Part shown: piece by piece, positions 15,898 to 52,683 of the stretch
Position numbering within the stretch: the first letter of the stretch is position 1
How the letters are laid out: the number at the start of each line of letters is the position of its first letter
Assembly (NCBI GenBank): GCA_013388455.1
Contig: JACAFF010000022.1
Location: forward strand, 41,866 to 105,865
DNA length: 64,000 bases
Direction of reading: 5' to 3'
Source of the DNA: Nitrospirota bacterium
GTDB taxonomy: Bacteria; Nitrospirota; Thermodesulfovibrionia; Thermodesulfovibrionales; SM23-35
Position numbers and translations under genes: made by a program
The notes under the pieces: model-generated
The model's database searches: none
Seen by the model: only the letters and a program-made list of their open reading frames with translations
What the model was told of the DNA's origin: nothing

Positions 15898-18063
<2,166 letters not shown>

Positions 18064-18543: not shown

Positions 18544-18550
18544 AATTAAT

Positions 18551-18579: not shown

Positions 18580-18795
18580 GTGCTATCTAAATCTTTTAAA
18601 ATCTACTTACTTAAAACCAATTCGTTATTTTAATAATTCATAGAAAATATATTGAAAAGTATTACGGAAAATCTTTTCAGAAACCGGAAACTTTCAAGAA
18701 ATAAAAGGTAGCAACAAAGAACTCTTTCAAATTCTTATCAATTTAAGCGGTCGGATTTTAATAGCTATAACGAGAAATAGAATATGATTGTAACA

Positions 18796-19197: not shown

Positions 19198-19204
19198 GTT
19201 TCTC

Positions 19205-19768
19205 CTATTTTTGCTCAGTTTTAATAAGTTTAGAGGTATCATATTGCTTATCCCTCAAACGAGAGAGAATTGCTTTATATACCTCTGGCTCAATCTCCTT
19301 TGTGCGGCTCAAAATCCAAAGGTATTTCCGACTCGGATGTCCTATAACGGCATATTCATAATTTTTACCCAGATCAATTATCCAATAGTCTCCAGCAAAA
19401 GGCCAGAAAAAAGATACCTTCAACTTGGCATTTGTTTCTTTATCGACTATCCATGCTTTACCTTTTGCAGACCTAATTTTGCCGCTGAAAGATTTGTCAT
19501 AACATTCATTTAGAACAGAGATTTTACCATCATCTCTCAGGGTATACGTTGCCTTACTTCCTACACAACCCTCCTGAAAGATGTGGGGATATCTTGCAAT
19601 CTCATACCATGTTCCTGCATAGCGTGTTAAATCCACATAAGGCACAATCTGTAAAGGCAGATAAGTTTTTTCCTTGGTACCCATGCATCCCATTAAATTC
19701 AGAAACATTGAAGTGATGATTAAAATACAGAATGCTATTAACCTTGATGTAAAATTATATCGATTCAT
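19205..19768 (-). CDS. blc: bacterial lipocalin (Blc-like outer-membrane lipoprotein)
   Basis: Lipobox LMGC; lipocalin motifs GTWYEIARYP, YWIIDL...YEYAVIG.P.R.YLWILSR. Confidence 0.88.
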   Translation of the reverse strand: MNRYNFTSRLIAFCILIITSMFLNLMGCMGTKEKTYLPLQIVPYVDLTRYAGTWYEIARYPHIFQEGCVGSKATYTLRDDGKISVLNECYDKSFSGKIRSAKGKAWIVDKETNAKLKVSFFWPFAGDYWIIDLGKNYEYAVIGHPSRKYLWILSRTKEIEPEVYKAILSRLRDKQYDTSKLIKTEQK

Positions 19769-19956
19769 TTCTCGTCTTTGTTACCAATAACAGAAACTTT
19801 TGCATTTACAGGTCAATGAAACCTGCTTAGATACTTTTCTGATTTTCTTTATAATTCTACCTTCAGACTATAAACCGGACTTCTTGAACGGTTGTTTCAT
19901 TTCTTATTAATTATATATAATATATAAAATAATTTCTCAATTGCAACTTGTGATTT

Positions 19957-38306: not shown

Positions 38307-39158
38307 TTAAAAGAATTCCTTCATTATATTATCTAACACTGACAGATCAACTGGCTGTTTGACTAATGGATTGTCTTTAATGATAGGTATTCTTTCCTCT
38401 AAAATCGGACGGCGGTTTTTATAGATTATACCTATAGGGATATGTTCTCCCCATTCAAGAGCCTTTTTAAAAGCTTCTATTCTGTTTTCAGGGTTGTATT
38501 CAGGCTCTATTTTATATATCCTTTGGTTATACCATTCATATGTATTAATTTTATTGAATGTCACACATGGTTGGAGAATATCTACAAGGGAAAAACCTTT
38601 GTGTTTAATTGCCTCTTTTATGATTTCTTTTAAATGCAGAGTATCACCTGCAAAACTTCTTGCTATAAAACTGCAGTCATTTGCAACCGCAATTGCTATA
38701 GGATTCAACTGTTCAGAAAAGACCCCGAAAGGCTGATTTTTAGTTATCATTCCTTCCAGACTTGTAGGGGATGCCTGACCTTTTGTAAGCCCGTAGATCT
38801 GGTTATCGTGCACAAAGAGTTTAACGTTTATGTTTCTTCTCATCGCATGTATAAAGTGGTTCCCACCCTCACCGTAACAGTCTCCGTCTCCTGCTACTGC
38901 TATGACAAGCATTTCATGATTTGCAAGCCTCATTCCCGTAGCAACCGGCAATGTCCTTCCATGAAGTCCGTTGAAAGTATTACATTTCAGATAGTGCGGG
39001 AATTTCCCTGCCTGTCCGATCCCTGATACAATCGTAAATTGATGAGGCTCAAGTCCAAGCTCGACCATTGCCTCTTTAAATGCTTTGAGGATGCCGAAGT
39101 TGCCACATCCCGGACACCATGCAGGTATCTGACCTTTATAATCTTCTAATACTGACAT
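38307..39158 (-). CDS. 2-oxoacid:ferredoxin oxidoreductase, beta (TPP-binding) subunit
   Basis: WCPGCGNFG, GDGD...GGNH TPP motif; overlaps the alpha-subunit gene end. Confidence 0.9.
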   Translation of the reverse strand: MSVLEDYKGQIPAWCPGCGNFGILKAFKEAMVELGLEPHQFTIVSGIGQAGKFPHYLKCNTFNGLHGRTLPVATGMRLANHEMLVIAVAGDGDCYGEGGNHFIHAMRRNINVKLFVHDNQIYGLTKGQASPTSLEGMITKNQPFGVFSEQLNPIAIAVANDCSFIARSFAGDTLHLKEIIKEAIKHKGFSLVDILQPCVTFNKINTYEWYNQRIYKIEPEYNPENRIEAFKKALEWGEHIPIGIIYKNRRPILEERIPIIKDNPLVKQPVDLSVLDNIMKEFF

Positions 39159-40863
39159 CTAACTCTCTTAAAAGTCCTTCAACAGTAAATGGCCTTCCGT
39201 CATATTTATTAATATGTGCCTTGAATTCATAGCCCATCTCTGCTTTCATAAGACGTGCAAATTGTCGAGTTGCATTCTGTTCAATACAAACGGTCATCTC
39301 TGCATTCTTCAGCAAAGTCAAATAATCAAATACTGTTGCAGGGAAAGGATAAATTTCACTAAAATGAAGCATCGCTATCTCTTTATTTTTCGAAAGAATA
39401 TCGACCACCTCTTTCATGACTCCAAATGTAGAGCCCCATCCTGCAATAATCAGGCGGGGCTTACTGTCACCATAAAGCACAGGAGGACTAATATCTTTTC
39501 TTATATGAGGCAGTTTATTGAAAAGCCTTTTCTGCACCATCTTTATTCGCTTCTCTGCATCTTCTATAATATGACCATCCTCATCATGCTCATCGCTGTC
39601 TGTGACTATTAATGATTTAGAAACTCCAGGAACTCCGAGAGGCGACACCCCTGTTTCTGTAAAGGCATGCCTTTTGTAGTTGTTAAAATTTTTCAATTCT
39701 TCTTCTCTGAGTCTATAGTCTTTATAAAAAATTCTGCTCATATCAAAAGCATCGAAAGTCCATCCAGAATCAGCCAGATATTGGTCAAACAATATAAAGG
39801 CAGGAATCTGATATTTCTCAGCCATATCGAATGCTTTATTAGTAAGATAAAATGCCTGTTCAGGTGTTCCAGGGGCAAAAATAACACGGGGAAATTCCCC
39901 ATGTGCAGCGTGGATTGTGAAAAGTAAATCAGACTGCTCTGTTCTCGTTGGAAGACCTGTAGCTGGAGCTGGTCTTTGCCCGAGTGCAATAACAACAGGG
40001 GTCTCAGTCATCCCAGCCAGAGATAGCCCTTCTACCATGAGAGCAAATCCTCCACCAGCAGTTCCGGTCATTGCTCTTACGCCTGCGAATGATGCACCTA
40101 TGGCCATATTGATAGCTGCGATCTCATCCTCAGCCTGTTCAACAATAATCCCATACTCTTTCTCTTTTCCTGCAAGATAATTCATTATTCCTGTAGAAGG
40201 TGTCATAGGATATGCAGAATAAAATTTGCATCCAGATGCAATCGCACCGAGTCCTATAGCTTCAATACCATTTATAAGCATCTTCTTCCCTGATAAAGGT
40301 GCTGGTATAAGAGAACAATGGAGACAGTTTTTCACTGCATAGTCATATCCTGCTTGTGCTGATTTAATATTTGCATTAATGACCCCCTCACCTTTCTTTT
40401 TGAAAGTATCTTTTATGATCGCATTAAGGATATCGAGTTCCATCTTAAGCATTCCAAGGACAGCGCCGGTTGCAACAGTATTTGCCATAATCTTGCTGCT
40501 ACCGTGCTCAATAGCAAGCTTTGTGAATGGGACATCAAGATAAAATCCCTTTCCTTCTCTTTTTACTTCTCCTATAGCAGATGAATCATTAATGATCTGG
40601 CCATTATCTACGACTTCAAAAGCATGCTGTTCTATACTTGCTCTATCGAGAGCAATGAGTATATGAACATTTTCGCTGATAGCAGTGACCGGGGTGTTTG
40701 AAATCCTTATCTGGTAGAAATTGTGACCTCCCCGTATTCTTGATTCATAATCCTGGCTGGTTAAGACATTGTATCCCGAACGTGAAAATACCTTTGCGAG
40801 TGTATCTCCAATGGTCTGGATACCCTGTCCTGCCTCACCGCCTATCTTGATTGAATAGTCCAC
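39136..40863 (-). CDS. 2-oxoacid:ferredoxin oxidoreductase, fused gamma-alpha subunit
   Basis: 575 aa; N-terminal gamma-type domain (GGEAGQGIQT), then alpha domain (YPMTPST, GASFAG.RAMT.T). Confidence 0.9.
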   Translation of the reverse strand: MDYSIKIGGEAGQGIQTIGDTLAKVFSRSGYNVLTSQDYESRIRGGHNFYQIRISNTPVTAISENVHILIALDRASIEQHAFEVVDNGQIINDSSAIGEVKREGKGFYLDVPFTKLAIEHGSSKIMANTVATGAVLGMLKMELDILNAIIKDTFKKKGEGVINANIKSAQAGYDYAVKNCLHCSLIPAPLSGKKMLINGIEAIGLGAIASGCKFYSAYPMTPSTGIMNYLAGKEKEYGIIVEQAEDEIAAINMAIGASFAGVRAMTGTAGGGFALMVEGLSLAGMTETPVVIALGQRPAPATGLPTRTEQSDLLFTIHAAHGEFPRVIFAPGTPEQAFYLTNKAFDMAEKYQIPAFILFDQYLADSGWTFDAFDMSRIFYKDYRLREEELKNFNNYKRHAFTETGVSPLGVPGVSKSLIVTDSDEHDEDGHIIEDAEKRIKMVQKRLFNKLPHIRKDISPPVLYGDSKPRLIIAGWGSTFGVMKEVVDILSKNKEIAMLHFSEIYPFPATVFDYLTLLKNAEMTVCIEQNATRQFARLMKAEMGYEFKAHINKYDGRPFTVEGLLRELDVSIRRL

Positions 40864-40878: not shown

Positions 40879-41346
40879 TTAAACAAAGCTTTTTCTTAAA
40901 TTATTCAACCAAACAATATGGCTTTTCTCTTCATTGATAATTTTATCCAGAATCTCTTTTTCCCCAGTTGTTTCTTTCAACGCATAATAATAAAGTAACG
41001 TCTCGCGTTCAAAACAGAGAGCAAAATCAATAGCCTCTCGTGCAGATTTTACATGTTCAAGTGAAGGCAGACATTTATCTTTTCCAAGAAAGAATTCAGA
41101 ATCAATGATAGCTCTTAGATAAAGTTTGATCTCATCCCATCCTTCAGGCTCTTCGTCGTTTATCTTATTTAGCAAATCGGAAAAACTCCTACCATGTTTT
41201 GTCTCATGTGCTGCAAGTAACTCGAAGAGTTTTTTCAATTCGCTATTATCCTTGAATTTTTCTGCCATGAGTGTATAAAACTCATAACCTAACTTTTCTG
41301 TCTGAATAGCCTGTTCAACAACCTCTCTTATTGAAAATTTCACCAT
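40879..41346 (-). CDS. ferritin-like/rubrerythrin-family diiron protein (no rubredoxin domain)
   Basis: Two E...E..H pairs (EKLGYEFY...HETKH; ERETLLYY...EEKSH); GGAGGA RBS before the ATG at 41346. Confidence 0.7.
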   Translation of the reverse strand: MVKFSIREVVEQAIQTEKLGYEFYTLMAEKFKDNSELKKLFELLAAHETKHGRSFSDLLNKINDEEPEGWDEIKLYLRAIIDSEFFLGKDKCLPSLEHVKSAREAIDFALCFERETLLYYYALKETTGEKEILDKIINEEKSHIVWLNNLRKSFV

Positions 41347-41390
41347 CGTATATCCTCCATTCAATTTATTCGTTAAAACTATATATATTT

Positions 41391-41729
41391 CTAAATTACA
41401 TCTTTAATATCTTTAATAGAAATACTATGACTATCAATAAGGTAACCCAGAAGACTAAGACCTCCGCAAGGTTTTGCATCTGTCTTTTTCACAAAAAAGT
41501 CACAGTCTTCTTGAGAGAAGGGACAAATTGCACAGATAGTCTGAATTAATTCTTCATCTATTATACTGTCTGCCTTGTGCTGGAAATCTTTAAAATAAAT
41601 CTCTATTCCTTTATTTATTAATCTCTCTATAATTGTAAAGCCAAAACATTCAAGTTCTTCATTCTTGTTAGGTTTATAATAATGACAGTAACGAAGACAT
41701 ATTGTCTTGTCTAAATCAATTGCTTTCAT
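41391..41729 (-). CDS. Cys-rich hypothetical protein (112 aa)
   Basis: CLRYCHYY...C and CAICPF...C....C motifs; sits between the pseudo-kinase and the ferritin-like/OFOR genes on the same strand. Confidence 0.5.
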   Translation of the reverse strand: MKAIDLDKTICLRYCHYYKPNKNEELECFGFTIIERLINKGIEIYFKDFQHKADSIIDEELIQTICAICPFSQEDCDFFVKKTDAKPCGGLSLLGYLIDSHSISIKDIKDVI

Positions 41730-41735
41730 GTTTCT

Positions 41736-43925
41736 TCAAACCTGTTTAAACTGCTCGTTAATTTTTCCATTATCTTCAATTTTTAAAACAAGGCTGTTCC
41801 GCTCAGCAGATACTGATATTTTTACCTCATTTACAGTAGTATATTTAGCAAGATTTAGCAGCGCATCCTGTATAAAATGATATGCAATATTTTCTGCCTC
41901 TGCAGGAAAAGGAATATCTAATCCCTCATGTTTAAAATTAACATTCACATTTGTCATTCTTGAATACTGGTTTAGATACCATTTAAAAGCAGAAATCAAA
42001 CCAATTTTATCAAGCATTGGCTGGTATAGCTTTAGTGATATATCCTTAATATTACCAAGGAGATTTTCAATAATTGATAAAGCTTTGTTCAGATTTTCAG
42101 TAATATTTATGTGAGCCTGCGATTTCATTTCTTCTAAAGATACCTTAAGAACATTCAGATAACTACCAATTTTTTCATCGATTTCAGCAGATAGGGATTC
42201 CCTCTCTTTTTGCATTTCTAACCAATGTTCTGTCAGCGCTTGCAATCGCCTGGCATATTGCTGGATTGTTGCCTCATCAAGTTTATGATATGTTATGTCA
42301 CGTATGATTTTTAGAGTAACATCCTTTCCTCTCACTCTGGCAAGAGATTGTGAAACTTCTACAGGAAATTTTGTACCATCTTTTTTTACAGCAAGAAACT
42401 CCACAGCCTCTTCAATAGATGCCCATTCCCAATATTTCCTGAATGGTTCAAGTCGGCTCTTTGTAACTTCAGGATATTCCTGTAATGAGAGCAACTGCTG
42501 AAAATCTTTACCAACAGCCTCATGCGTAGAGTAGCCAAACATATTTTCTGCTGCGGGATTCCAGAATAATATTTTCTGTTCATCATCTATTAGAATAATC
42601 GCATCCTTTGAAGCAAATGTGATCATATGTAACTTTTCTTCACTCTCTTTTAGGGCTTTTTCTGTTTGTTTATGTTCAAGTATTTCAACTTCGAGTTCTT
42701 CAATCAACGTTCTGAGTTGTGATGTTCTATCGATAACCCTCTGTTCAAGTTCCTTATTTAATTTTTCTATCTCTTCTGAGGCTTTCTTCAGTTCAGTAAT
42801 GTCAATATTTATACCGAGTATGCGATCAGGCTCTCCGTTTTGATTACAGAAAATATTACATCTTGAACTGACCCAACGTATTGTTCGATCTGACGTTATT
42901 ATTCTGAATTCAATGTCACAATCTTCTCTTTTTTCTCTCATAGTTCTCCATGTATTTTCAACAGAAGGTCGGTCATCAGGATGAATTGTCTCAAGCAGGC
43001 TTTTATAGTCTCCTTGAAAACCACGTGATCTCATGGAATAAAGATGTTCAAGTTCTTTTGAAAATGATATACGACCAGTAGGAATGTGCCATTCGAAAAT
43101 CCCGACTTTCGCAGCCTTCTGTGCAAGATCAAGCCTCTCAATTTTCTCCTTTAAGATATGTTCCATCTGTTTTCTTTCAGTAATATCTGTTACGATTGCA
43201 AAACTACCTTTAAAATTATCACTTTTATCAAAAATAGCCCGTGGGGAGACAATAGCGCATATGGTATTTCCATCTTTATGTTGCCATGTAAGTTCATAAG
43301 GGCTATTTATATTTTCTTCTTGTTTCACAAACTGCTCATTGAATATCTTTTTGTTAAAATCATCGAGAAAATCACTTACAAGCCTCCCTTCTACTTCAGA
43401 CCGAGATAAGCCGATCATTTCACATAGTTTATTATTCGCATAAGTAATAAATCTGTTTTCATCCACTACTATTAATCCTTCATTCATCATCTCAATTAGC
43501 ATTTGGTAACGCTCTTTGCTCTTCCTGAGTGCTATTTCTGCTTCTTTAATCCTCATCATCGAATGAACACGTGCAATAAGCTCCTGACCAGAAATTGGGC
43601 GAACAATATATCCGTCAGCTCCTGTCTCAAACCCTTCTATCTGATTTTCAGAAGAAGTTCTCACTCCTGAAATAAGTATTACATATGTTCCAAAAAATTC
43701 TGGATTGCTCTTAATCTCTCTGCATATGGTGATTCCGCTAATATCTGGAAGGTTTACATCGAGTAATACTAAATCAGGCCTTTCTTCTTTCAGCCTGGCA
43801 AGGCATTCAGCACCTGTAATAGCTGAAACCACTTTATAACCCGCTAATTGTAAAATACTTGAATTAATATTTAACAGGTCTGGGTCATCATCTACACAGA
43901 GAATCTTCCCCTTAGTGTTAATCAC
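41736..43925 (-). CDS. REC - 3xPAS - degenerate HisKA_3/HATPase hybrid sensor (pseudo-kinase)
   Basis: N-terminal receiver (DDDPD...DLVLLDVNLPD), repeated PAS modules with coiled-coil linkers. DHp-like segment ERESLSAEIDEKIG aligns to ER.RIARELHDEIG with His replaced. N-box LLNLAKY and DNG are present, but the protein ends before a G2 box. Confidence 0.75.
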   Translation of the reverse strand: MINTKGKILCVDDDPDLLNINSSILQLAGYKVVSAITGAECLARLKEERPDLVLLDVNLPDISGITICREIKSNPEFFGTYVILISGVRTSSENQIEGFETGADGYIVRPISGQELIARVHSMMRIKEAEIALRKSKERYQMLIEMMNEGLIVVDENRFITYANNKLCEMIGLSRSEVEGRLVSDFLDDFNKKIFNEQFVKQEENINSPYELTWQHKDGNTICAIVSPRAIFDKSDNFKGSFAIVTDITERKQMEHILKEKIERLDLAQKAAKVGIFEWHIPTGRISFSKELEHLYSMRSRGFQGDYKSLLETIHPDDRPSVENTWRTMREKREDCDIEFRIITSDRTIRWVSSRCNIFCNQNGEPDRILGINIDITELKKASEEIEKLNKELEQRVIDRTSQLRTLIEELEVEILEHKQTEKALKESEEKLHMITFASKDAIILIDDEQKILFWNPAAENMFGYSTHEAVGKDFQQLLSLQEYPEVTKSRLEPFRKYWEWASIEEAVEFLAVKKDGTKFPVEVSQSLARVRGKDVTLKIIRDITYHKLDEATIQQYARRLQALTEHWLEMQKERESLSAEIDEKIGSYLNVLKVSLEEMKSQAHINITENLNKALSIIENLLGNIKDISLKLYQPMLDKIGLISAFKWYLNQYSRMTNVNVNFKHEGLDIPFPAEAENIAYHFIQDALLNLAKYTTVNEVKISVSAERNSLVLKIEDNGKINEQFKQV

Positions 43926-44044
43926 TATCCTTTGCTCCAGTAGTTTCTTTCATTAGATACTAAAATATTCAGTTAAGTATATCATAAAAAGGTATGGAGT
44001 ATATGAGAAACAATATTCATTATGATATAAAATATATATAACTT

Positions 44045-45190
44045 ATGAAATTTTTTCTCGCTAAAGAGGCTCCTCTTAAATGGCTTGAAATACCTTCTGT
44101 GTATAACATAAAAAAAGATGACCTCTATGAGCTTGATGATGATTCCTTCACTTTTTTAATACAATGTGCCTCTGAAACTGGCTGCGACTCAGAATATACT
44201 GATTTTGTAATGTATTGTCTTAATGAGGGAATTTTAACAAGAGACAAAATAAAAATGAATTATCCACCTGTGATAAAATCTCTAATTCCTTCACTTCGGT
44301 ATCTTGAATTGCAGATAACCAACAGATGCAACCTTAGGTGTAGGCATTGTTTTATTACAGAAGGAAAATATTCAGAACTTTCCATCACACAGATAAGAAC
44401 CATCCTTAAAGAATTCGAGGAAATGCAAGGTTTGAGGGTAATGATATCCGGAGGTGAACCCCTAATTCACAGTTCATTCGAAGAAATAAATGAGATGCTT
44501 CCTGATTTTTTCATGCGAAAAGTATTATTCACAAATGGTTTATTATTTAATAAACAGATTTTAAAAAAACTTCATGTGGACGAAATCCAGATTAGTATAG
44601 ATGGCCTTGAAACATCCCATGATTTATTGAGAGGAAAAGGCACTTACAAAAATACCCTTAAGGCTTTGAAAAATGCAATTGATTGCGGATTTGAAGTCTC
44701 TGTATCAACTATGGTTCATTCCGGAAATCTCAAAGATTTTCAGAAAATGGAGAAACTCTTTAAAAGCATGGGGATAAAGGACTGGACTGTTGACATCCCC
44801 TGTGTTACCGGTAGACTTAAAGAAAATCCTGATTTATTAGTCCCTCCTGAAATAGCTGGAAAATATTTCAGATATGGTTATGGAGAAGGACTCCATAAAG
44901 GGTCAACAGGATTTGCCTGTGGCTTACATTTGATGGGTATAACATCTGATGGTAGAGTTTCAAAATGCACATTTTTTTCTGAATATTCTGTTGGAACTAT
45001 TGAAGAAGGATTAAGACAATGCTGGCAGAAAATAAAACCTATCAGACTTAATGAACTTAAATGTGATTGTGAACATATTGAATTATGTAGAGGAGGATGC
45101 AGATATAGAGCACTCCTTCTTGGAGACCTATATGGGAAAGACCTTTACAAATGTTTTTATTATGGTAAAATTAATAAATACAGGACATGA
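44045..45190 (+). CDS. radical SAM/SPASM-domain peptide-maturase-like enzyme with RRE-like N-terminal extension
   Basis: CNLRCRHCF (CxxxCxxC), GGEPL, C-terminal Cys cluster CDCEHIELCRGGCRYR; about 85 aa precede the rSAM core. Confidence 0.8.
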   Translation: MKFFLAKEAPLKWLEIPSVYNIKKDDLYELDDDSFTFLIQCASETGCDSEYTDFVMYCLNEGILTRDKIKMNYPPVIKSLIPSLRYLELQITNRCNLRCRHCFITEGKYSELSITQIRTILKEFEEMQGLRVMISGGEPLIHSSFEEINEMLPDFFMRKVLFTNGLLFNKQILKKLHVDEIQISIDGLETSHDLLRGKGTYKNTLKALKNAIDCGFEVSVSTMVHSGNLKDFQKMEKLFKSMGIKDWTVDIPCVTGRLKENPDLLVPPEIAGKYFRYGYGEGLHKGSTGFACGLHLMGITSDGRVSKCTFFSEYSVGTIEEGLRQCWQKIKPIRLNELKCDCEHIELCRGGCRYRALLLGDLYGKDLYKCFYYGKINKYRT

Positions 45191-45224
45191 AGTCCTGTTT
45201 CCTCTTTGAAAGGAGGTGTACTTT

Positions 45225-45287
45225 ATGACAATAAAAAAAGTACAAAAAGGTGTTTGTACCAATTGTAAATGTAAAAGTTCCTGCTAA
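45225..45287 (+). CDS. 20-aa Cys-rich peptide MTIKKVQKGVCTNCKCKSSC (candidate RiPP precursor; not in ORF track)
   Basis: AGGAGG at 45211-45216, 8-nt spacer, ATG at 45225, TAA at 45285; 34 nt downstream of the rSAM/SPASM stop; followed by a strong hairpin. Confidence 0.55.
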   Translation: MTIKKVQKGVCTNCKCKSSC

Positions 45288-45298
45288 GTGGTAAAATT

Positions 45299-45331
45299 AA
45301 TAGAGGCTGGACTTGAAAGTCAGCCTCTATT
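45299..45331. terminator. hairpin between convergent genes (probable bidirectional terminator)
   Basis: AATAGAGGCTG-(11 nt)-CAGCCTCTATT, perfect 11-bp stem with additional inner pairing; lies between the peptide ORF and the ferredoxin gene. Confidence 0.5.
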
Positions 45332-45342
45332 AGTATCCTTAA

Positions 45343-45528
45343 TTACTCTAAGGTTATTGCCTGAACAGGACATGTATCAGCAGCTTCCTGACAATTGCAA
45401 GTATCACATTTATCAGGACCGATTACATGAGCCTTTCCATCATCTCCTACTTTGAAAACTTGGGGGCAAATTTCCTCACAAGTTGCACATCCCTCGCATA
45501 GGTCTTCATTGATTACAGGCTTTGGCAT
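45343..45528 (-). CDS. small monocluster [4Fe-4S]/[3Fe-4S] ferredoxin
   Basis: 61 aa; CEGCATCEEICP ... CPVQAI with an extra CDTCNC pair, typical of thermophile/Desulfovibrio-type ferredoxins. Confidence 0.9.
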   Translation of the reverse strand: MPKPVINEDLCEGCATCEEICPQVFKVGDDGKAHVIGPDKCDTCNCQEAADTCPVQAITLE

Positions 45529-45666
45529 ATAAACATACCTCCTTACTTATAAAATTTAAACTAAAAAACCCTCTTATTTTAAAATTTAAGAAGGAAAAAA
45601 TCAAAACATTATAGTATAAAATCTCAAAAATTTTCTATATGTTATGCTCCAAAATAAATGTATTTT

Positions 45667-46167
45667 TTACGCCCAAGGAGTGCCACCATCAACAATACTA
45701 TGCTCTTCCCACATAAACCAGCTTCCAGTATCCGAGAGAAAAAAATATGTATTTGCAAAAATTTCATAATGTTGCTGTTCTTCCTTTACAAGCCTTTCAA
45801 AAAGCGCTCTTTCTTTCTCTGTAGTTACCTCAGCACCTGCATTCTTGTAGAATTCGACTCCTTCCTTTTCCATCTGCATAGCGATCTTAAATGCCTCAAG
45901 CTCATCTGAAGTTGCCTCGATCCTTTTAATCATCGAATCTTTCATAGTCTCAAAAATTGTTTTGATATTCCTCATAGGATTCACATCCTGGATAGTGATA
46001 TCTATTTCTCTAAAAATCTGTGAAAGCATCTGCAAGTGTCTTTTCTCATCTTCAATTATGCTCAACAACATCTTTTTCCCAACAGGATGACTTGTTTTCT
46101 CAGCTGCCTGAGTATAAAAATCTATAGCATCCTTTTCCATCTTAATGGATATCTCGATCGCATTCAT
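45667..46167 (-). CDS. ferritin-like diiron protein (rubrerythrin/erythrin-like)
   Basis: Duplicated helix pairs MEKDAIDFY...EDEKRH and MEKEGVEFY...EEQQH. Confidence 0.75.
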   Translation of the reverse strand: MNAIEISIKMEKDAIDFYTQAAEKTSHPVGKKMLLSIIEDEKRHLQMLSQIFREIDITIQDVNPMRNIKTIFETMKDSMIKRIEATSDELEAFKIAMQMEKEGVEFYKNAGAEVTTEKERALFERLVKEEQQHYEIFANTYFFLSDTGSWFMWEEHSIVDGGTPWA

Positions 46168-46398
46168 CTTCTCCTCCTCTACTTCAGATTCAAATTGTCA
46201 TAAAATAATATATAAGTAAAAAGCTTATACCCCCACCTTATGGGAGAATTTAATATATTACCCACTACCCCTTCCTGTATTAGGACAGGCGTCCCGCCTA
46301 TCTATATGCATAATCTTACCTCATAGCGGAGATATTCATCTAAAGTTTAATCTTTTTTATCAGTTGTAATCAACTTATTATTCACCTTTGTGGAAGCT

Positions 46399-47022
46399 TT
46401 ATTCGAATTTAGCAAATTCTTCAAACTTTCTCCTGAAAGACCTCGGTAGAAGACTGACTCCTTTGTTTAAAATTCCAACAGCTATAATCATAGGTATAAT
46501 CTTATCTTCTGGAATATTAAACTCCTTTTTAATACACTCTTCATCAAAACCATCCATTGGATGTGTTTCGAGTTTAAGACCTTTTGCTGCAAGCATGAGA
46601 TTCATAGCAAATAGTGCAGTATTTTTCACAGCAAAAATCTTTCTCTTCAAACTGTCCGGATCACCATATAGCGTCTTTGTCATATTTTCGTATGTCTCAC
46701 GCATCTCGGCTTTCATATATCCAAGTTCCTGCCAGCTATCAAGCACCCGACCTAAATTTTCCTCTACCCCCTGAGGGTCTGCAATCAGTATCAAAACCAC
46801 TGAGGCCTCTTCAACCTTCGGCTGATTAAACGCACATTTTCTCAACACTTTTTTTCTTTCTGGATTTTTCACAATAATCACCTTCCATGGTTGAAGGTTG
46901 AAAGAAGATGGCGAGAAATTTGCGATTTCTAAGAGTTCTCTTATAACATCATCGGATAATACCTCTTTATCATTAAAAAAATTTATTGAACGCCTTTCTT
47001 TTATTGCTTGAATAATATCCAT
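46399..47022 (-). CDS. nitroreductase-family FMN oxidoreductase
   Basis: IKERRSI..F, PSSFNLQPW motifs; AAGGAG RBS before the ATG at 47022. Confidence 0.85.
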   Translation of the reverse strand: MDIIQAIKERRSINFFNDKEVLSDDVIRELLEIANFSPSSFNLQPWKVIIVKNPERKKVLRKCAFNQPKVEEASVVLILIADPQGVEENLGRVLDSWQELGYMKAEMRETYENMTKTLYGDPDSLKRKIFAVKNTALFAMNLMLAAKGLKLETHPMDGFDEECIKKEFNIPEDKIIPMIIAVGILNKGVSLLPRSFRRKFEEFAKFE

Positions 47023-47142
47023 ATGTTTCTCCTTCATTGTCTAATATTTAATAATATCCTTTTTTAATATTAACATGGTATGCAATAATGTCAACTTTAA
47101 TACCAAATTCATATCTATTAAATCCGTTATAATAAATAAAAC

Positions 47143-48120
47143 ATGCGAAAACCATCATACATTCAGCTTTATCTGACTTTAAGATGCAATCAGAATTGCA
47201 GCTTTTGCTTCAATCAGATAATTCCTAACAGAAAAGATTTTAAAGATATGGATATTCAAAAAGCATTTTATCTCAGTGGATTATTCTCAGCAAACGGTAT
47301 CTCAGAAATTGATTTATTAGGTGGAGAGCCTTTACTTATTCCATGGCTGATAAGGTTTATTGAGCCTATAATAGGAAATGGCATCAGGGTTAACATCAGC
47401 ACAAATGGAAGCTCTACCGAGTTTATAGAACAATTTAGAAATTTTGAGACGGATTTATTGAATATAGGCTTTTCTGTTCACGGTCTTTCAAAAACTCACA
47501 ATGCATTAACAGGTTCAGACAATTTTACAAGAACTATATACGGGATCAAACTCTTGATAGAAGCAGGGAAAATTCCTCATGTAAAAAGCATACTGACACC
47601 TGAAAATATAAATGAAATTTTTTCTCTTGTTGATTATCTTATAGAAATCGGCGTTCGGAGATATTACATTATGTTTGAAGATACTATTGGGATGGATAAT
47701 AATTCACACTGCATTCCTTTCCCTCATTTCTGGGATTTTTATCATAATCTTAAAAAATTCACAAGAGGGCGTTTAGAGATAGGGGCTGTTGTTGCATCAG
47801 GCTTTTTATCAGAATTAAGCAATTCTAATATGAGATGCAAAGCAGGAAATGACAAGCTTGCAATACTTCCGGATGGTTCAGTTTTTCCCTGTAATCTCTT
47901 TGCTGGATTTCAGGAATTCTGTCTCGGCAATATATTTATTGATAAATACGATAAAATTTTAGAAAACCCTATCATTAACTATTTCAGAAATCATGAAAAA
48001 AACGGTTGCATAAATACAAATTGTAAATACTTCATTTCATGCAGAGGTGGTTGTCCTGCTCATATTTATTATTATTCTCGTTCTTTTGAAGGAGGGGACA
48101 TTCGCTGTAAAAAGAAGTAA
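47143..48120 (+). CDS. radical SAM/SPASM-domain protein (no N-terminal recognition domain)
   Basis: LRCNQNCSFCF at residues ~14-24, GGEPLL, C-terminal CKAGN...C..., NCKYFISCRGGCPA SPASM-type cysteines. Confidence 0.8.
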   Translation: MRKPSYIQLYLTLRCNQNCSFCFNQIIPNRKDFKDMDIQKAFYLSGLFSANGISEIDLLGGEPLLIPWLIRFIEPIIGNGIRVNISTNGSSTEFIEQFRNFETDLLNIGFSVHGLSKTHNALTGSDNFTRTIYGIKLLIEAGKIPHVKSILTPENINEIFSLVDYLIEIGVRRYYIMFEDTIGMDNNSHCIPFPHFWDFYHNLKKFTRGRLEIGAVVASGFLSELSNSNMRCKAGNDKLAILPDGSVFPCNLFAGFQEFCLGNIFIDKYDKILENPIINYFRNHEKNGCINTNCKYFISCRGGCPAHIYYYSRSFEGGDIRCKKK

Positions 48121-48158
48121 TAATTAGGTAAAATTAATAAAAAAAAGGGGTGTTTGGA

Positions 48159-49373
48159 ATGAAAGCAATAGAGATCAAATCAGATATTTATTGGGTTGGA
48201 GCCATTGATTGGGCAATTCGAGACTTTCACGGATATCTTACACCGAATGGATCAACTTACAACAATTATCTTATACTCGATGAACAAATTACACTGCTTG
48301 ACACTGTAAAGTATCCTTTTGCAGATGTTACAATAGACAATATTACAAGCCTCGTAGAACCGTCAAAGATAAAAAACATCATAATAAATCATATCGAAAA
48401 TGACCATATTACAAGTCTTGATAAAATAATGTCTTTGGCACCAGAGGCTTCAATTTATATAACAGAGAGAGGCAAAAAAGGGTTAATCAGATTTTTCGAT
48501 ACATCAAAATGGGATGTCAGGATTGTAAAAACAGGGGATACACTTAACATCGGTAAAAGAAATCTGCTTTTTATTGAGACGCCCATGCTTCATTGGCCTG
48601 ATTCAATGATGACTTATATTAAGGAAGATAAGATTCTAATCAGTCAGGATGCATTCGGACAGCATCTGGCTTCTTCAGCAAGATTTGATGATGAGTTTAT
48701 TGATTGTTTTTCAGTATCTGAACTTGAGGATGCTGTAAAAGACTATTATGCAAATATATTGATGCCTTTTGGCATGCTTATTAAAAATAAAATTGAAGAG
48801 ATTCAGAAACTCGGACTTCAGATCGATATTATTGCTCCGGATCACGGGATTATATGGAGAAAGGATCCATTGAAGATTGTAAATATGTATCTCGATATGG
48901 CAGATGGAAAATCAGACCTCAGAGTTTTGATAGTATACGATACAATGTGGCAGAGTACCGAGTATATGACCCTCCCCATCACTCAAGGCATAAAAGATGA
49001 GGGCGTCGATGTAAAGGTAATAAAACTAAGAGCAACCCCCTTAAGCATTGCTATTAAGGAATTTTGGAAGGCAAGAGGATGTCTTATTGGTTCTCCAACT
49101 TTAAACAACACCTTTTTCCCAACAATCGGAGAGTTTTTGACTTATCTCAAAGGACTCAGGCCAAAAAATCGTATCGCTGGAGCCTTTGGAAGTTATGGTT
49201 GGGCAGGTGGAGCTGTAAGAGATATTTATGAAGACTTGAAAAAAATGGGGCTTGAGGTTGTTGAGCCTGGCATTCAAGTTATTTATAAACCATCACCTGA
49301 TGATAACGATCGTTGTTATGAATTCGGGAAGGATTTTGCAAAAAAAGTAAAGGCTTATCACACAAAGTTTTAA
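48159..49373 (+). CDS. flavodiiron protein (FprA/ROO-type O2/NO reductase)
   Basis: Metallo-beta-lactamase-like domain with H.E.DH (NHIENDH), then a flavodoxin domain (VLIVYDTMWQSTE, GSPTLNN). Confidence 0.9.
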   Translation: MKAIEIKSDIYWVGAIDWAIRDFHGYLTPNGSTYNNYLILDEQITLLDTVKYPFADVTIDNITSLVEPSKIKNIIINHIENDHITSLDKIMSLAPEASIYITERGKKGLIRFFDTSKWDVRIVKTGDTLNIGKRNLLFIETPMLHWPDSMMTYIKEDKILISQDAFGQHLASSARFDDEFIDCFSVSELEDAVKDYYANILMPFGMLIKNKIEEIQKLGLQIDIIAPDHGIIWRKDPLKIVNMYLDMADGKSDLRVLIVYDTMWQSTEYMTLPITQGIKDEGVDVKVIKLRATPLSIAIKEFWKARGCLIGSPTLNNTFFPTIGEFLTYLKGLRPKNRIAGAFGSYGWAGGAVRDIYEDLKKMGLEVVEPGIQVIYKPSPDDNDRCYEFGKDFAKKVKAYHTKF

Positions 49374-49376
49374 ATT

Positions 49377-50045
49377 ATGAATATTGAAATTATTCTCCTT
49401 ATCCTTGAATCCGTTCTACTTATAGCTACCATAATATTACTCCTTTATAGCCTTAAAGAAGGAAGAGGCAGGAAAAAACTTTTATTGGAGGTAGGAAAGG
49501 TAACGAAAATCCTTACAAGGCAGGAATATTTTCTTTCTGTTGTCGATTCAATGACAGATGCAAAAGAAGAATTAATTGGTATTATCACAGGAAGGTCACC
49601 AGCAGATGAGGATAAAAAAAGAGTAAAAGATATTTTGCATAATATAGAAAGCCTGTCTACAAAAGGTGTAAAAATAAAATATCTTATGCCAAAGTTTTAT
49701 GACCGATTACACATAGGATATTTATACTCAAAGGCAGGCGCAGAAGTACGATATAGTATCTGTGCTATAGCAAATAATATACGTTTCATTATTGTTGATG
49801 ATAAAATAGTAGTCATTGGTATACCGGAAAGTACAGGTGAAAAAGAAGCTACCAGAAAAGGATTCAGAATACCTTCAGAAGGACTCGCTGGCATACTTAA
49901 AGATCATTTTTACAGATGCTGGGAGGCAAGCATGCCATATGAGACATTTTTAAAAGAAATAATTCACCAGACTGGTCTTACTCCGAAGCTTATCGGAAAA
50001 GAGCTCAAAATAGATGAGCTTGAGAATTTATTAAAAAATAATTAA
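49377..50045 (+). CDS. membrane-anchored hypothetical protein (PLD-like/TrmB-C-like fold suspected)
   Basis: N-terminal TM helix IILLILESVLLIATIILLL; IRFIIVDDKIVVIG motif; start is 3 nt after the FDP stop. Confidence 0.5.
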   Translation: MNIEIILLILESVLLIATIILLLYSLKEGRGRKKLLLEVGKVTKILTRQEYFLSVVDSMTDAKEELIGIITGRSPADEDKKRVKDILHNIESLSTKGVKIKYLMPKFYDRLHIGYLYSKAGAEVRYSICAIANNIRFIIVDDKIVVIGIPESTGEKEATRKGFRIPSEGLAGILKDHFYRCWEASMPYETFLKEIIHQTGLTPKLIGKELKIDELENLLKNN

Positions 50046-50057
50046 AGGAGGTATTAA

Positions 50058-50552
50058 ATGTCAAAGACAGAAAAAAATCTTCAATATGCATTTGCCGGTG
50101 AATCACAGGCAAATAGAAAATATCTTGCCTTTGCAAAAAAGGCTGAAGAAGATGGCTATAAACAGATTGCAAAACTCTTCAGGGCAGCAGCCGAAGCAGA
50201 AACAGTCCATGCCTTCAATCACTTAAGGGAACTTGGCGAGATAAGGAGCACTAAAGAAAATCTTGAGTCTGCAATGAATGGTGAAATCTTTGAATTTGAG
50301 AATATGTATCCTGCTATGATAGAAGATGCAAAGGCTGACGAAGACAAAGGTGCCGAAAGGTCTTTTAAATTTGCCAATGAGGTCGAAAAGATTCATGCAG
50401 AGCTTTACAAAAAAGCACTTGAGAATATCGGTAAGAATCCTGAAGTTGATTATTTTGTCTGTCAGGTCTGTGGAAATACAGTAGAAGGAGAACCACCTGA
50501 TAAGTGCCCTATCTGTGGAGCACCGAAAAAAATGTTTAAAAAAATTGAGTAG
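50058..50552 (+). CDS. rbr: rubrerythrin
   Basis: Diiron four-helix bundle (E..A..Y....A; EAETVHA; E...MYP; EKIHAELY) plus C-terminal rubredoxin-like CQVCG...CPICG. Confidence 0.93.
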   Translation: MSKTEKNLQYAFAGESQANRKYLAFAKKAEEDGYKQIAKLFRAAAEAETVHAFNHLRELGEIRSTKENLESAMNGEIFEFENMYPAMIEDAKADEDKGAERSFKFANEVEKIHAELYKKALENIGKNPEVDYFVCQVCGNTVEGEPPDKCPICGAPKKMFKKIE

Positions 50553-50582
50553 GAATTTGGCTATTTTTGAAGGGGAATAAGT

Positions 50583-52100
50583 ATGGACACAAAAAAATTG
50601 TATCTCTTATTTTTCACAACTTTTCTTCTTTTATACTTGAGTTTAAATAATATTTATGCTGAAAGCATCGAACTTCCTGATAACCCTAAAATAAGTCCTA
50701 AAACAAAGGCATGCATTGGTTGTCATACTTTATATACACCCGGTATTGTAAAAGACTGGGAAACGAGCAGACATTCGAAAACAACCCCAGAAGAAGCCTT
50801 TAAGAAATCTAAATTTGAAAAAAGGATATCTGCTGAAAAATTAACAGAAAACCTTTACAGCTATGCCGTAGGATGCTATGAATGCCACAGCTTGAACGTA
50901 AAAAGCCACAAAGACAATTTTGACCATTTTGGATATAAGGTCAATGTTATAGTGTCTCCATCTGATTGTAGCACATGCCATCCTGTTGAAGTCAGCCAAT
51001 ATTCAGGAAGTAAAAAAGCTCATGCATATGGCATCTTGATGAATAATCCAGTCTATGCAACTATGGTCGATACAATAACAGGATTCAAAAGTTTAGAAAA
51101 CAATTCATTTGTTTCAGCAAAACCTTCGGAATCCACACTTCACGAGACATGTCTTGGTTGTCATGGAACAAAAGTAGAAGTAAAAGGCTTAAAGAATATC
51201 TCGACTAAGCTCGGAGATATATCATTCCCAGATTTAACCAACTGGCCAAATCAGGGGGTTGGAAGGATAAATCCTGACGGAAGCCTTGGTTCCTGTACCG
51301 CATGTCATCCCAGACATAGCTATTTGATCGAAATTGCAAGAAAGCCTTATACCTGTGGTCAGTGTCATCTCGATCCTGATGTGCCTGCATGGAATGTATA
51401 TCGTGAAAGTAAGCACGGAAATATCTATTCCTCGAAATTTAGTGAATGGAATTTCGATTCAGTGCCTTGGGTTATCGGAGAAGACTTCAAAGCTCCAACG
51501 TGTGCAACATGTCACAATGGTCTTATTATTTCTCCTTCAGGAAATGTAATTGCTGAAAGAACACATGACTTCGGATCACGTCTATGGGTCAGAATATTTG
51601 GGCTCATTTATACACATGCACAACCCAAATCAGGCGATACCACTATAATTAAAAATAAAGATGGTCTTCCTCTACCAGTAACCTTTGGTGGCGAACAATC
51701 CTCAGACTTTCTGATTGATAAAAATGAGCAGAAAAAAAGATTTAAGATTATGAGTAATATCTGCAATAGCTGTCACAGTTCTGATTGGATTAACGGCCAT
51801 TTTGCAAAACTTGACAAAACTATTAAAGAAACAGATGATATGATAAAAACTGCTACAAATTTAATAATAACCGTATGGGGAAAGAAAATCGAGGACAACA
51901 AAAATCCCTTTGATGAAACCATAGAAAAGATGTGGATGAGACAGTGGCTATTTTATGCAAATTCCATACGCTATGCTTCCGCTATGACTGGTGCTCCTGA
52001 TTATACAAGTTTCAAAAATGGCTGGTGGTATTTTGATGAAAACATACAGAGAATGAGGGATTGGATAAAATTCAAAGAAAATAGTGAGGACCACGATTGA
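50583..52100 (+). CDS. secreted octahaem c-type cytochrome, hydroxylamine-oxidoreductase (HAO)-like family
   Basis: Signal peptide; eight CxxCH motifs (CIGCH, CYECH, CSTCH, CLGCH, CTACH, CGQCH, CATCH, CNSCH) in 505 aa. Confidence 0.7.
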   Translation: MDTKKLYLLFFTTFLLLYLSLNNIYAESIELPDNPKISPKTKACIGCHTLYTPGIVKDWETSRHSKTTPEEAFKKSKFEKRISAEKLTENLYSYAVGCYECHSLNVKSHKDNFDHFGYKVNVIVSPSDCSTCHPVEVSQYSGSKKAHAYGILMNNPVYATMVDTITGFKSLENNSFVSAKPSESTLHETCLGCHGTKVEVKGLKNISTKLGDISFPDLTNWPNQGVGRINPDGSLGSCTACHPRHSYLIEIARKPYTCGQCHLDPDVPAWNVYRESKHGNIYSSKFSEWNFDSVPWVIGEDFKAPTCATCHNGLIISPSGNVIAERTHDFGSRLWVRIFGLIYTHAQPKSGDTTIIKNKDGLPLPVTFGGEQSSDFLIDKNEQKKRFKIMSNICNSCHSSDWINGHFAKLDKTIKETDDMIKTATNLIITVWGKKIEDNKNPFDETIEKMWMRQWLFYANSIRYASAMTGAPDYTSFKNGWWYFDENIQRMRDWIKFKENSEDHD

Positions 52101-52101
52101 G

Positions 52102-52683
52102 ATGAAGATCATCGCATTTCTCGGTAGCCCAAGGGAAGAAGGAAATACAGAGCTGCTGTTACGAGAAACAATTAAAGGAATCGAGGAATCGGGATTCCAT
52201 GCACACACCTTTCGACTTAATAGCATGAATATAATGCCATGTCAAAACTGTGGGGGATGTGAAGAGACAGGAATATGTGTTTATGATGATGATATGACTC
52301 AAATATATAAAGCAATCAGAGAGGCTGACCGTATAATACTCGCTTCACCAATTTTTTTTATAAATGTCAGTGCACAGACAAAAATTATGATAGATAGATG
52401 TCAGGCCTTCTGGTGCGAAAAATATCTCCTTAAGAGACATATTCCAGAGGGTGTGAACGGGAGAAGGGGACTCCTTCTGCTTGTCGGTGGCATGAAAGGC
52501 AAAATAGGCACATCCGGGCTGGAATGTGCAGAAAAGACCGTAAGAGCCTTTTTCAGAACCATCAGTGTCCCTGAACACAAGACATTAGGTTATATAGAAG
52601 TCGATGCAAAAGGTGCAATTTTAAAACATCCCTCTGCTTTAAAAGAAGCATATGAGGCAGGAAAGGAGCTTGTGAAGATTTAA
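52102..52683 (+). CDS. iron-sulfur flavoprotein / NADPH-dependent FMN reductase family (Isf-like)
   Basis: GSPR..GNT flavodoxin-like loop and compact CQNCGGCEETGIC cysteine motif; ATG 52102 follows the cytochrome stop. Confidence 0.75.
   Translation: MKIIAFLGSPREEGNTELLLRETIKGIEESGFHAHTFRLNSMNIMPCQNCGGCEETGICVYDDDMTQIYKAIREADRIILASPIFFINVSAQTKIMIDRCQAFWCEKYLLKRHIPEGVNGRRGLLLLVGGMKGKIGTSGLECAEKTVRAFFRTISVPEHKTLGYIEVDAKGAILKHPSALKEAYEAGKELVKI

Follow-up and report, generated by a model that had tools for sequence, protein, structure and literature searches.

A conserved radical SAM and peptide cassette beside a detoxification operon with its own radical SAM gene in Nitrospirota

RESULTS AND DISCUSSION

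Two gene units in one cluster

A 64,000-nt stretch of contig JACAFF010000022.1 from a Nitrospirota bacterium (the whole stretch is referred to as the window) contains a gene cluster of approximately 12 kb (positions 40879-52683), in which two radical S-adenosylmethionine (rSAM) enzymes of the SPASM type are interleaved with oxidative-stress genes. Our reading, to which we assign a probability of about one in two, is that this is a conserved oxidative-stress supercluster of one Thermodesulfovibrionia-like Nitrospirota lineage, that it consists of two separable units, and that the rSAM enzyme of the second unit acts as a second enzyme on the peptide of the first. The first unit would be a cassette encoding a small Cys protein (c1), an rSAM enzyme (rSAM1), and a 20-amino-acid (aa) precursor peptide. 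The second would be an operon encoding another rSAM enzyme (rSAM2), a flavodiiron protein (FDP), a 222-aa protein (TM222), rubrerythrin (Rbr), an octahaem cytochrome, and an Isf-like flavoprotein, with a ferritin-like protein (Ftn2), a ferredoxin (Fd), and a nitroreductase alongside.

Gene identities were assigned from an open reading frame (ORF) map of the window, Pfam and NCBIfam profile scans, and motif checks, and were compared with approximately 170 related loci (L numbers below). Every gene listed in an earlier note on this DNA was recovered in place with family support, and four features were added to that list: c1, a degenerate kinase-like gene (41736-43925), TM222, and a 2-oxoacid:ferredoxin oxidoreductase (OFOR). 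An origin as a foreign island was considered and rejected; G+C content and base composition equal those of the rest of the window, and hence we describe the region as a gene cluster rather than a foreign island.

A peptide cassette shared by bacteria and archaea

The cassette consists of three genes followed by a hairpin:

41391-41729, minus strand: c1, small Cys protein of 112 aa with two copies of an approximately 50-aa domain, three conserved Cys in each
44045-45190, plus strand: rSAM1, radical SAM/SPASM enzyme with an 85-aa N-terminal domain resembling a recognition element (RRE) of peptides made on the ribosome and modified after translation (RiPPs) (PF04055, 3.2e-22)
45225-45287, plus strand: predicted precursor peptide of 20 aa, MTIKKVQKGVCTNCKCKSSC, with a Shine-Dalgarno (SD) sequence, AAAGGAGG, 7 nt upstream
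45296-45334, no strand: 17-bp hairpin common to the convergent peptide and ferredoxin genes

Both the CX3CX2C motif of rSAM1 (CNLRCRHC, residues 95-102) and its SPASM Cys residues (292, 308, 340, 342, 348, 352, and 370) are invariant in the homologue alignment. SPASM assignment was based on the C-terminal seven-Cys pattern CX9-15GX4C ... CXnCX5CX3C ... C, with two auxiliary clusters; the Pfam SPASM score was 1.2e-7 for rSAM2 but only 0.0096 for rSAM1. The model of rSAM1 places four short strands and two helices in residues 1-70, with a predicted local distance difference test (pLDDT) score of approximately 80-87; the whole-protein model is poor (pLDDT 55.6). This N-terminal domain appears RRE-like in the model.

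Homologues of rSAM1 number in the thousands and are usually 60-70% identical across Nitrospirota. A species-level set of 51 loci (one genome per species, full-length or near-full-length relatives) spans Nitrospirota, Magnetobacterium, Actinomycetota, Dehalococcoidia, Rokubacteria, Thermoleophilia, Desulfobacterales, Archaeoglobi, Methanoperedens, and Asgard archaea. The peptide is encoded in the fetched locus of 38 of the 51, nearly always beside rSAM1: directly downstream or, in archaea and Desulfobacterales, directly upstream (the copy in L038 lies 1.7 kb downstream). A co-conserved adjacent precursor, the hallmark by which a RiPP maturase was judged here, therefore accompanies rSAM1 but not rSAM2. 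The earlier note had described both SPASM enzymes as peptide-modifying in type, which the adjacent peptide supports for rSAM1; for rSAM2, which has neither an RRE domain nor an adjacent peptide, only the SPASM assignment stands.

The most widely shared neighbor family in ORF clustering was c1, found beside rSAM1 in 13 related loci as well as the window, in bacteria and archaea alike. Archaeal c1 has one copy of the domain and Nitrospirota c1 has two, and the gene order in archaea and Desulfobacterales is peptide-c1-rSAM1. A search of 1.8 billion representative proteins returned approximately 170 clusters of c1 relatives, including a natural c1-rSAM1 fusion (P0442, E 6e-92 versus rSAM1) and a natural c1-cupin fusion (P0405), the cupin half of which matches the gene adjoining the cassette in L042, L028, L088, and L092. 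The single-sequence model of c1 is all-helical; its pLDDT of 64 is insufficient for a fold search. The idea that c1 is a copy of the rSAM1 N-terminal domain was rejected (hhalign probability 0.7%).

No curated Pfam or NCBIfam family is reached by the peptide, c1, the rSAM1 N-terminal domain, or full-length rSAM1 and rSAM2. Moreover, a literature search found the peptide motif in no paper, and the cassette's family is not mentioned in a RiPP-rSAM compendium of 15,000 enzymes. Judging from gene order and co-occurrence, c1, rSAM1, and the 20-aa peptide make up a self-contained cassette that is old and extends from bacteria to archaea.

Several lineage-specific features were seen around these genes. 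A recurrent neighbor of the cassette is a small cupin whose C-terminus is His-rich (L042:12044-12409, L028:2683-3006, L088:3063-3395, L092:1617-1949, and L010:17894-18220); it is not found in the window. As a candidate for lineage-specific tailoring, a CrtI-like FAD-dependent oxidoreductase is encoded directly after the cassette in Dehalococcoidia (L033:3921-5453), Methanoperedens (L039:11158-12720), and an Asgard archaeon (L053:1623-2081). Of 22 rSAM1 homologues, 8 have in-frame insertions of low complexity (8-60 residues; e.g., NPPSPPFRKGGKGGFEKLSSK) at a single site after the CX3CX2C motif (alignment columns ~115-175), and these resemble a translated repeat element; the window rSAM1 has no such insertion.

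The peptide is short and nearly invariant

Pooling all fetched loci gave 61 unique peptide variants from 84 loci, 58 of which are exactly 20 aa long. Their consensus, M.I.K........CKCK.SC, combines a Lys-rich leader half with a core that reads CKCKSSC in the window copy. Among the 58 variants of 20 aa, M1, C14, C16, and C20 are invariant, and I3, S19, and K15 (57/58 each), K5 (56/58), and K17 (54/58) nearly so. These peptides are spread over Nitrospirota, Actinomycetota, Dehalococcoidia, Desulfobacterales, Archaeoglobi, Methanoperedens, and Asgard archaea. A Promethearchaeota precursor (L050:1075-1281, minus strand) carries the standard leader, MKIVKKVKRVSAA, followed by three tandem cores (CKCGDSC-ISNG-CKCGDSC-ISNT-CKCGDSC), and this combination of one leader with three repeats shows which part is core (CKCxxSC) and which is leader (the Lys-rich half).

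The 17-bp hairpin is situated between the peptide stop codon (45287) and the 3' end of the ferredoxin gene (45343). Folding of 45170-45345 yielded -49.7 kcal/mol with a z-score of -5.3, and the centroid structure contains the hairpin as well, in agreement with the earlier description of a ferredoxin gene that converges on the peptide ORF and shares its terminator. The interval from rSAM1 to the peptide start (45180-45244, plus strand) contains three additional small hairpins; one (45180-45198) spans the rSAM1 stop codon, and in another (45201-45216) the sequence CCTCTT pairs with the AAGGAGG ribosome-binding site of the peptide. These may be a translational control element.

A second, decayed peptide-like sequence (…IRKVSKQVSLTCKCKSFCYW) is located at approximately 19779-19862 on the minus strand, in which AAG replaces the ATG start and TAT the TAA stop. 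It precedes genes (15898-19768, minus strand) for a lipoprotein lipocalin, a PNPOx-like protein, a PerR-like regulator, and the catalase-peroxidase KatG. An intact copy (MKIRKVSKRISLTCKCKSSC, with a strong SD) is found in L168-L171, where it heads a peptide-lipocalin-PNPOx operon with no rSAM gene nearby and no PerR or KatG beside it; hence, the peptide gene can exist apart from its enzyme. We considered the decayed copy as an independent link to PerR-KatG and rejected it, given that the relatives' operon has neither gene and that the window copy has lost both start and stop.

A second rSAM gene leads the detoxification operon

The genes of the second unit and those alongside it are as follows:

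45343-45528, minus strand: ferredoxin of 61 aa (Fer4_13, 6.9e-11; 8 Cys)
45667-46167, minus strand: Ftn2, ferritin-like diiron protein with a Cys-free erythrin domain (PF02915, 2.1e-17; two ExxH motifs)
46399-47037, minus strand: nitroreductase-family flavoprotein (PF00881, 2.8e-26)
47143-48120, plus strand: rSAM2, radical SAM/SPASM enzyme without an RRE domain (PF04055, 1.9e-16), first gene of the detoxification operon
48150-49373, plus strand: FDP, class-A flavodiiron protein for O2 and/or NO reduction (ODP, 2.1e-21; Flavodoxin_1, 1e-10)
49377-50045, plus strand: TM222, 222-aa protein with an N-terminal membrane helix, a conserved operon member of no known family
50058-50552, plus strand: short rubrerythrin (PF02915, 2.5e-24; RUBY_RBDX, 5.6e-11)
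50583-52100, plus strand: periplasmic octahaem cytochrome c of the hydroxylamine oxidoreductase (HAO) family (eight CxxCH, signal peptide, Pfam Multi-haem_cyto)
52084-52683, plus strand: Isf-like iron-sulfur flavoprotein (FMN_red, 5.9e-22; CX2CX2CX5C motif)

Intergenic gaps among the plus-strand genes from 47143 to 52683 range from -17 to 30 nt, and we therefore read them as a single operon. The CX3CX2C motif of its first gene product, rSAM2 (CNQNCSFC, residues 15-22), and the SPASM Cys residues 232, 250, 289, 294, 300, 304, and 322 are invariant in the alignment. Since the cluster motif begins at residue 15, there is no N-terminal recognition domain. The best solved relative is the thioether synthase CteB (5wgg), of which residues 100-426 align with residues 8-314 of rSAM2 (i.e., CteB minus its N-terminal ~100 residues). 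No conserved adjacent small ORF was found as a substrate in the related loci, only sporadic rubredoxin or desulforedoxin genes.

To describe the neighborhood of rSAM2, we used 80 metagenome loci along with Pfam-annotated contigs (L083-L087, L174, and L175). Of 68 loci with usable flanks, 54 have a stress gene within 4 kb of rSAM2; among the other 14, about half lie on contigs that end just after rSAM2. Two arrangements were recognized. In arrangement A (38 loci, 44-53% identity), rSAM2 is first in the operon and Ftn2 is divergent from it; a varying set of genes follows, encoding a PerR-like regulator, AhpC, FDP, an AhpD-like CMD protein, the 222-aa protein, Rbr, the octahaem cytochrome, and Isf, sometimes with a desulforedoxin or rubredoxin, and the cassette, the ferredoxin, and often DsrC are encoded upstream. 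In arrangement B (16 loci, 36-42% identity), rSAM2 is last, in the order Ftn2-FDP-(octahaem cytochrome)-Isf-rSAM2.

The interleaving of rSAM and detoxification genes pointed out in the earlier note is thus no peculiarity of one contig: the order c1, rSAM1-peptide, ferredoxin, Ftn2, and rSAM2 with detoxification genes recurs in dozens of Nitrospirota contigs, and rSAM2 keeps FDP, Isf, and the octahaem cytochrome when the operon is rearranged. Isf is among the most constant partners of rSAM2, being present in most loci of both orders and directly upstream of rSAM2 in arrangement B. That constant partners are retained through rearrangement while the accessory set varies speaks for function more than for order kept by descent, and the interleaving is conserved and, as far as rSAM2 is concerned, probably functional. 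A literature search found no paper linking SPASM or rSAM enzymes to Rbr/FDP operons.

Ftn2 is the sole gene tied to both units, as it adjoins the cassette in clade-A loci that have no rSAM2 and comes first in arrangement B. Within the species-level set, the cassette lies beside rSAM2 in L003, L004, L010, L037, and L040, as it does in the window; detoxification genes are visible after rSAM2 in L003 and L010, and the contigs of L004, L037, and L040 end at rSAM2. Nine further species-level loci have c1 and/or Ftn2 beside rSAM1 (most also OFOR), with no rSAM2 or detoxification genes nearby. Two other gene orders tie rSAM2 to the cassette independently of stress genes: peptide-c1-rSAM1-rSAM2-cupin in L042 (Desulfobacteraceae), where rSAM2 overlaps the rSAM1 stop, and rSAM1-peptide-rSAM2 in L119.

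Each promoter has its own conserved block

Upstream regions were aligned for rSAM2 (42 loci), rSAM1 (18 loci), and the ferredoxin (34 loci), and each showed a separate conserved block. The rSAM2 block of approximately 40 nt (~47060-47100, ATTAnCATG..AATAATGTCAAGATTGATTATAAT) is conserved across many loci (L083-L159) and is a candidate promoter-plus-operator. Its core occurs once in the window, where near-matches are at chance level (6 found versus 4.4 expected). A PerR-like Fur-family gene follows rSAM2 in L086, L087, L093, L094, L111, L112, L117, and L133, with PerR models as its best match; it is not part of the window operon, and the PerR-like gene of the window is located 25 kb from the cluster, beside katG.

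Both rSAM genes lack an SD sequence and have a TATAAT-like box 2-10 nt before the ATG (44020-44047 and 47120-47145; also in relatives), which suggests leaderless or near-leaderless mRNAs. A strong SD on the peptide gene and none on the rSAM genes fits a system with much substrate and little enzyme.

Other elements were noted nearby. The Ftn2 promoter of relatives has its own conserved TTGATAATCTTTCAAAAAAAGATTAAACT block. The 5' untranslated region of the ferredoxin gene is long (45529-45666) and in many relatives contains a conserved C/G-rich hairpin (e.g., CCTTCC…GGGAAGG) with no Rfam match. An Rfam scan of the window returned nothing in the cluster; a TPP riboswitch at 46-155 (plus strand; RF00059, 69.4 bits) is unrelated to it.

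The joint reading and its alternatives

In the joint reading, the RRE-like domain of rSAM1 would bind the Lys-rich first half of the peptide (M-x-I-K/R-K-V-x-K), and the radical SAM/SPASM core would then modify the CKCKSSC end. By analogy with SkfB, CteB, and MftC-type relatives, the likeliest chemistry would be thioether cross-links from Cys sulfur or a reaction at the C-terminal Cys. The c1 protein, for which fusions are observed, would act as a Cys- or metal-bearing helper, and the modified 20-mer would remain in the cell. Lacking a recognition domain of its own, rSAM2 would serve as a second enzyme on the same peptide, a proposal based on its overlap with rSAM1 in L042 and its position directly after rSAM1-peptide in L119. 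If so, the location of rSAM2 in a stress operon would tie the peptide to the stress response in this lineage, with the product made for, or adjusted during, that response. Electrons would be passed on from OFOR, in its observed adjacency, by way of the 61-aa ferredoxin.

The earlier note had linked the peptide to redox or metal stress. This link is plausible but indirect: gene order favors it through clade-limited synteny, Ftn2 as a gene common to both units, and the rSAM1-rSAM2 adjacencies in L042 and L119. Several observations weigh against it. Outside one Nitrospirota clade, the cassette is flanked by unrelated housekeeping genes (TPR-ispE-prs-L25-pth, tRNA synthetase, amino-acid metabolism, and others). 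Among 34 distant loci (L014-L036, L038, L039, and L041-L049; L050, L051, and L053, cut or weakest, were excluded), Rbr, FDP, or Isf was encoded within 10 kb in only two (L042 and L048), which, as roughly a guess, is about what chance would give. For most of the rSAM1-peptide family, then, the pair sits in unrelated contexts, which is the outcome that the earlier note had named as speaking against its proposal. Several clade-A loci have c1-rSAM1-peptide-Ftn2 and no rSAM2 or detoxification genes within 10 kb, and arrangement-B operons, L091, and L094 have no cassette within the available 6-8 kb. In addition, the upstream alignments revealed no operator common to the rSAM1 and rSAM2 promoters; the second conserved home of the peptide gene, peptide-lipocalin-PNPOx, points to envelope or general stress and not specifically to O2 or reactive oxygen species; and radical SAM enzymes are oxygen-labile.

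It is possible, though we lean against it, that the two units are neighbors by descent only, with the peptide serving a general, non-redox role and rSAM2 having its own non-peptide substrate. In that case rSAM2 might mature or repair a protein or cofactor of the operon, such as Ftn2, FDP, Isf, or the haem protein. The varied surroundings of the cassette in most lineages would be expected under this alternative, as would rSAM2 operons of arrangement B with no cassette nearby, and rSAM2 itself has neither an RRE domain nor an adjacent peptide, with Ftn2 and Isf as its most constant partners. Its NCBIfam matches moreover include the non-peptide SPASM enzymes NirJ2, AhbD, and anSME; anSME, AhbD, and NirJ act on proteins or tetrapyrroles. 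However, the closest full-length solved relative of rSAM2 is a peptide thioether synthase (CteB), and L042, which is far from Nitrospirota, encodes an rSAM2 overlapping rSAM1 within a peptide-c1-rSAM1-rSAM2-cupin array, as L119 encodes rSAM1-peptide-rSAM2. A different alternative, which we consider quite unlikely, concerns the substrate of rSAM1: the enzyme would act on c1 or a small molecule, and the 20-residue ORF would encode an unmodified metal-binding or regulatory micro-protein. The Cys-rich c1 is indeed always near, and the peptide gene is found apart from rSAM1 in L168-L171 and L076. Nonetheless, peptide, c1, and rSAM1 are found together across phyla, precursor peptides typically have the leader-plus-core layout seen here (the three-core Asgard variant included), the fusions of c1 to an enzyme and to a cupin suit a partner more than a substrate, and the modelled N-terminal domain of rSAM1 is RRE-like.

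A secreted antimicrobial or signalling RiPP, such as a sactipeptide- or ranthipeptide-like bacteriocin, would be in keeping with the relatedness of these enzymes to SkfB, CteB, AlbA, and PapB-type maturases. Yet no exporter or transporter, peptidase (including a leader peptidase), or immunity gene was found beside the cassette, either by ORF clustering of the 51 loci or among the flanking proteins of approximately 20 distant loci, and the core is near-invariant across bacteria and archaea, the opposite of the diversification expected for antibiotics. On these two grounds, an antibiotic role is very unlikely, as the earlier note had already suspected. We also entertain a bolder extension of the joint reading, one that we regard as unlikely: the peptide would be a ribosomally made intracellular redox or metal cofactor, matured by the two rSAM enzymes with c1 and serving Ftn2 and FDP/Rbr/Isf. 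Its product might be a thiol or thioether electron mediator or a miniature rubredoxin-like iron site, with one of the rSAM enzymes under peroxide-stress control in these Nitrospirota. The window encodes neither a rubredoxin nor a desulforedoxin beside Ftn2, FDP, Rbr, or Isf.

If the joint reading is correct, many uncultured anaerobes of both prokaryotic domains possess an undescribed, deeply conserved rSAM/peptide system (peptide, c1, and rSAM1, sometimes with rSAM2 and a cupin), and the cassette's product would join the small set of conserved "housekeeping" modified peptides. The recurrent rSAM gene in an oxidative-stress operon of anaerobes is an unexplained oddity. An oxygen-labile enzyme in an O2 and peroxide defense operon would be counter-intuitive and would hint at a missing step in building or supplying the detoxification enzymes. 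Were the cofactor reading to hold, the peptide would be the third peptide-derived redox cofactor after pyrroloquinoline quinone (PQQ) and mycofactocin, and one common to bacteria and archaea. With a 20-aa peptide, a 112-aa helper, and two enzymes, the system is compact and amenable to direct testing.

Individual operon members and flanking genes

Motifs and family scores refine the identities of the operon members. FDP carries the HxExDH motif as HIENDH (residue 81) and the features of class A; it is not a NorV equivalog (423 bits for the NorV-type NCBIfam model versus a cut-off of 635) and has no rubredoxin domain. TM222 had no Pfam match at 0.01, only weak PLD-like or DUF7436 hints, and its homologues ("u224") are encoded in the corresponding operon of nine related loci (10 with L083, the query source). 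The rubrerythrin has ExxH motifs at residues 48 and 110 and a rubredoxin-like tail with two CxxC (Cys 135, 138, 150, and 153), and is a short-form relative on account of its NCBIfam Rbr equivalog score (105 versus a cut-off of 200 bits). The octahaem cytochrome matches PDB entry 4qo5 over most of its length (E 5e-133), and HAO and hydrazine dehydrogenase at E 1e-14 to 1e-17. In the Isf-like protein, the motif CQNCGGCEETGIC at residues 53-65 fits the Isf-type CX2CX2CX4-7C pattern; a sequence search returned no close solved relative.

The earlier note had called the ferredoxin monocluster; it is a ferredoxin, and its 8 Cys would also allow a second cluster or a disulfide. Arrangement-A relatives encode it between the peptide and Ftn2 at 68-93% identity. 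The nitroreductase is found at the matching position in some relatives only. Between the ferredoxin and Ftn2, a DsrC-family gene occurs in many relatives (L004, L037, L086, L087, L092, L100, L105, L107, L158, and L159), as does a gene for an 84-aa unknown protein; neither is present in the window.

The minus-strand genes before and around c1 are as follows:

38307-40863, minus strand: OFOR, two-subunit 2-oxoacid:ferredoxin oxidoreductase (beta, 38307-39158; alpha/gamma, 39136-40863)
40879-41364, minus strand: Ftn1, ferritin-like diiron protein with an erythrin domain only (PF02915, 2.4e-11; two ExxH motifs)
41736-43925, minus strand: degenerate protein with a response regulator, three PAS domains, and a histidine-kinase-like region (Pfam Response_reg and PAS)

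OFOR contains the Pfam domains POR, POR_N, TPP_enzyme_C, and PFO_beta_C and scores above the cut-off of NCBIfam TIGR03710 (672 bits). It adjoins Ftn1-c1-rSAM1 in many relatives and is a plausible supplier of reduced ferredoxin. The position of Ftn1 beside c1 is kept in arrangement-A relatives. The kinase-like gene, between c1 and rSAM1, looks inactive from its sequence: compared with the intact 781-aa homologue in L175, it carries another residue in place of the H-box His (EIDEKIG against ELHDEIG) and stops ~55 aa short, and it lacks the GerE-type partner regulator. A similarly truncated kinase is joined in frame to c1 in P0363.

Comparison with known systems

The cassette resembles the SCIFF/ranthipeptide systems of Clostridia (ScfA with ScfB/CteB), in which a short, conserved, Cys-rich peptide is likewise encoded beside a SPASM rSAM enzyme with an N-terminal recognition domain (in rSAM1, a domain that appears RRE-like in the model) in a minimal cassette without an exporter or protease. 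The physiological role of SCIFF is presumed to be non-antibiotic. However, the SCIFF peptide has approximately 45 aa and six Cys, whereas the peptide here has 20 aa and three conserved core Cys (CxCxxxC), and the cassette differs further in its extra partner c1, in a second rSAM enzyme and a cupin in some lineages, and in hosts that include archaea. Against the SCIFF maturase model (TIGR03974), rSAM2 scored 46.6 bits, in the SPASM part only and far below the cut-off of 425, and the model was absent from the top 25 for rSAM1.

Mycofactocin (MftA/B/C) and PQQ (PqqA/D/E) biosynthesis also share with the cassette a very short conserved precursor, a small accessory protein, an rSAM/SPASM enzyme, and, as proposed here, a product used intracellularly. 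The NCBIfam and PDB matches include MftC and PqqE, at scores well short of membership (MftC TIGR03962, 77.1 bits for rSAM1 and 61.4 for rSAM2 versus a cut-off of 265; PqqE TIGR02109, 55.7 versus 381). The peptide here ends in K-S-S-C and has no Glu or Tyr, whereas MftA ends in Gly-Val-Tyr and PqqA has Glu-x3-Tyr, such that a Cys/Lys/Ser core contrasts with the Glu-Tyr or Val-Tyr cores of PQQ and mycofactocin. Moreover, c1 is a Cys-rich protein modelled as helical and not an RRE of the PqqD/MftB type, and no peptidase or follow-up enzyme is conserved. Hence, as far as sequence comparison can tell, the layout is near that of SCIFF/ranthipeptides, mycofactocin, and PQQ, but all family cut-offs are missed widely and the partner protein is different.

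The detoxification operon, for its part, has the matching enzyme set and tight organization of the PerR-type clusters of strict anaerobes (Rbr, FDP, AhpC, and desulfoferrodoxin/rubredoxin, as well as the Isf of methanogens), and its cytochrome is like the octahaem cytochrome 4qo5 in having eight CxxCH motifs. It differs from those clusters in an HAO-family octahaem cytochrome, an unknown membrane protein, and an rSAM/SPASM gene as a fixed member.

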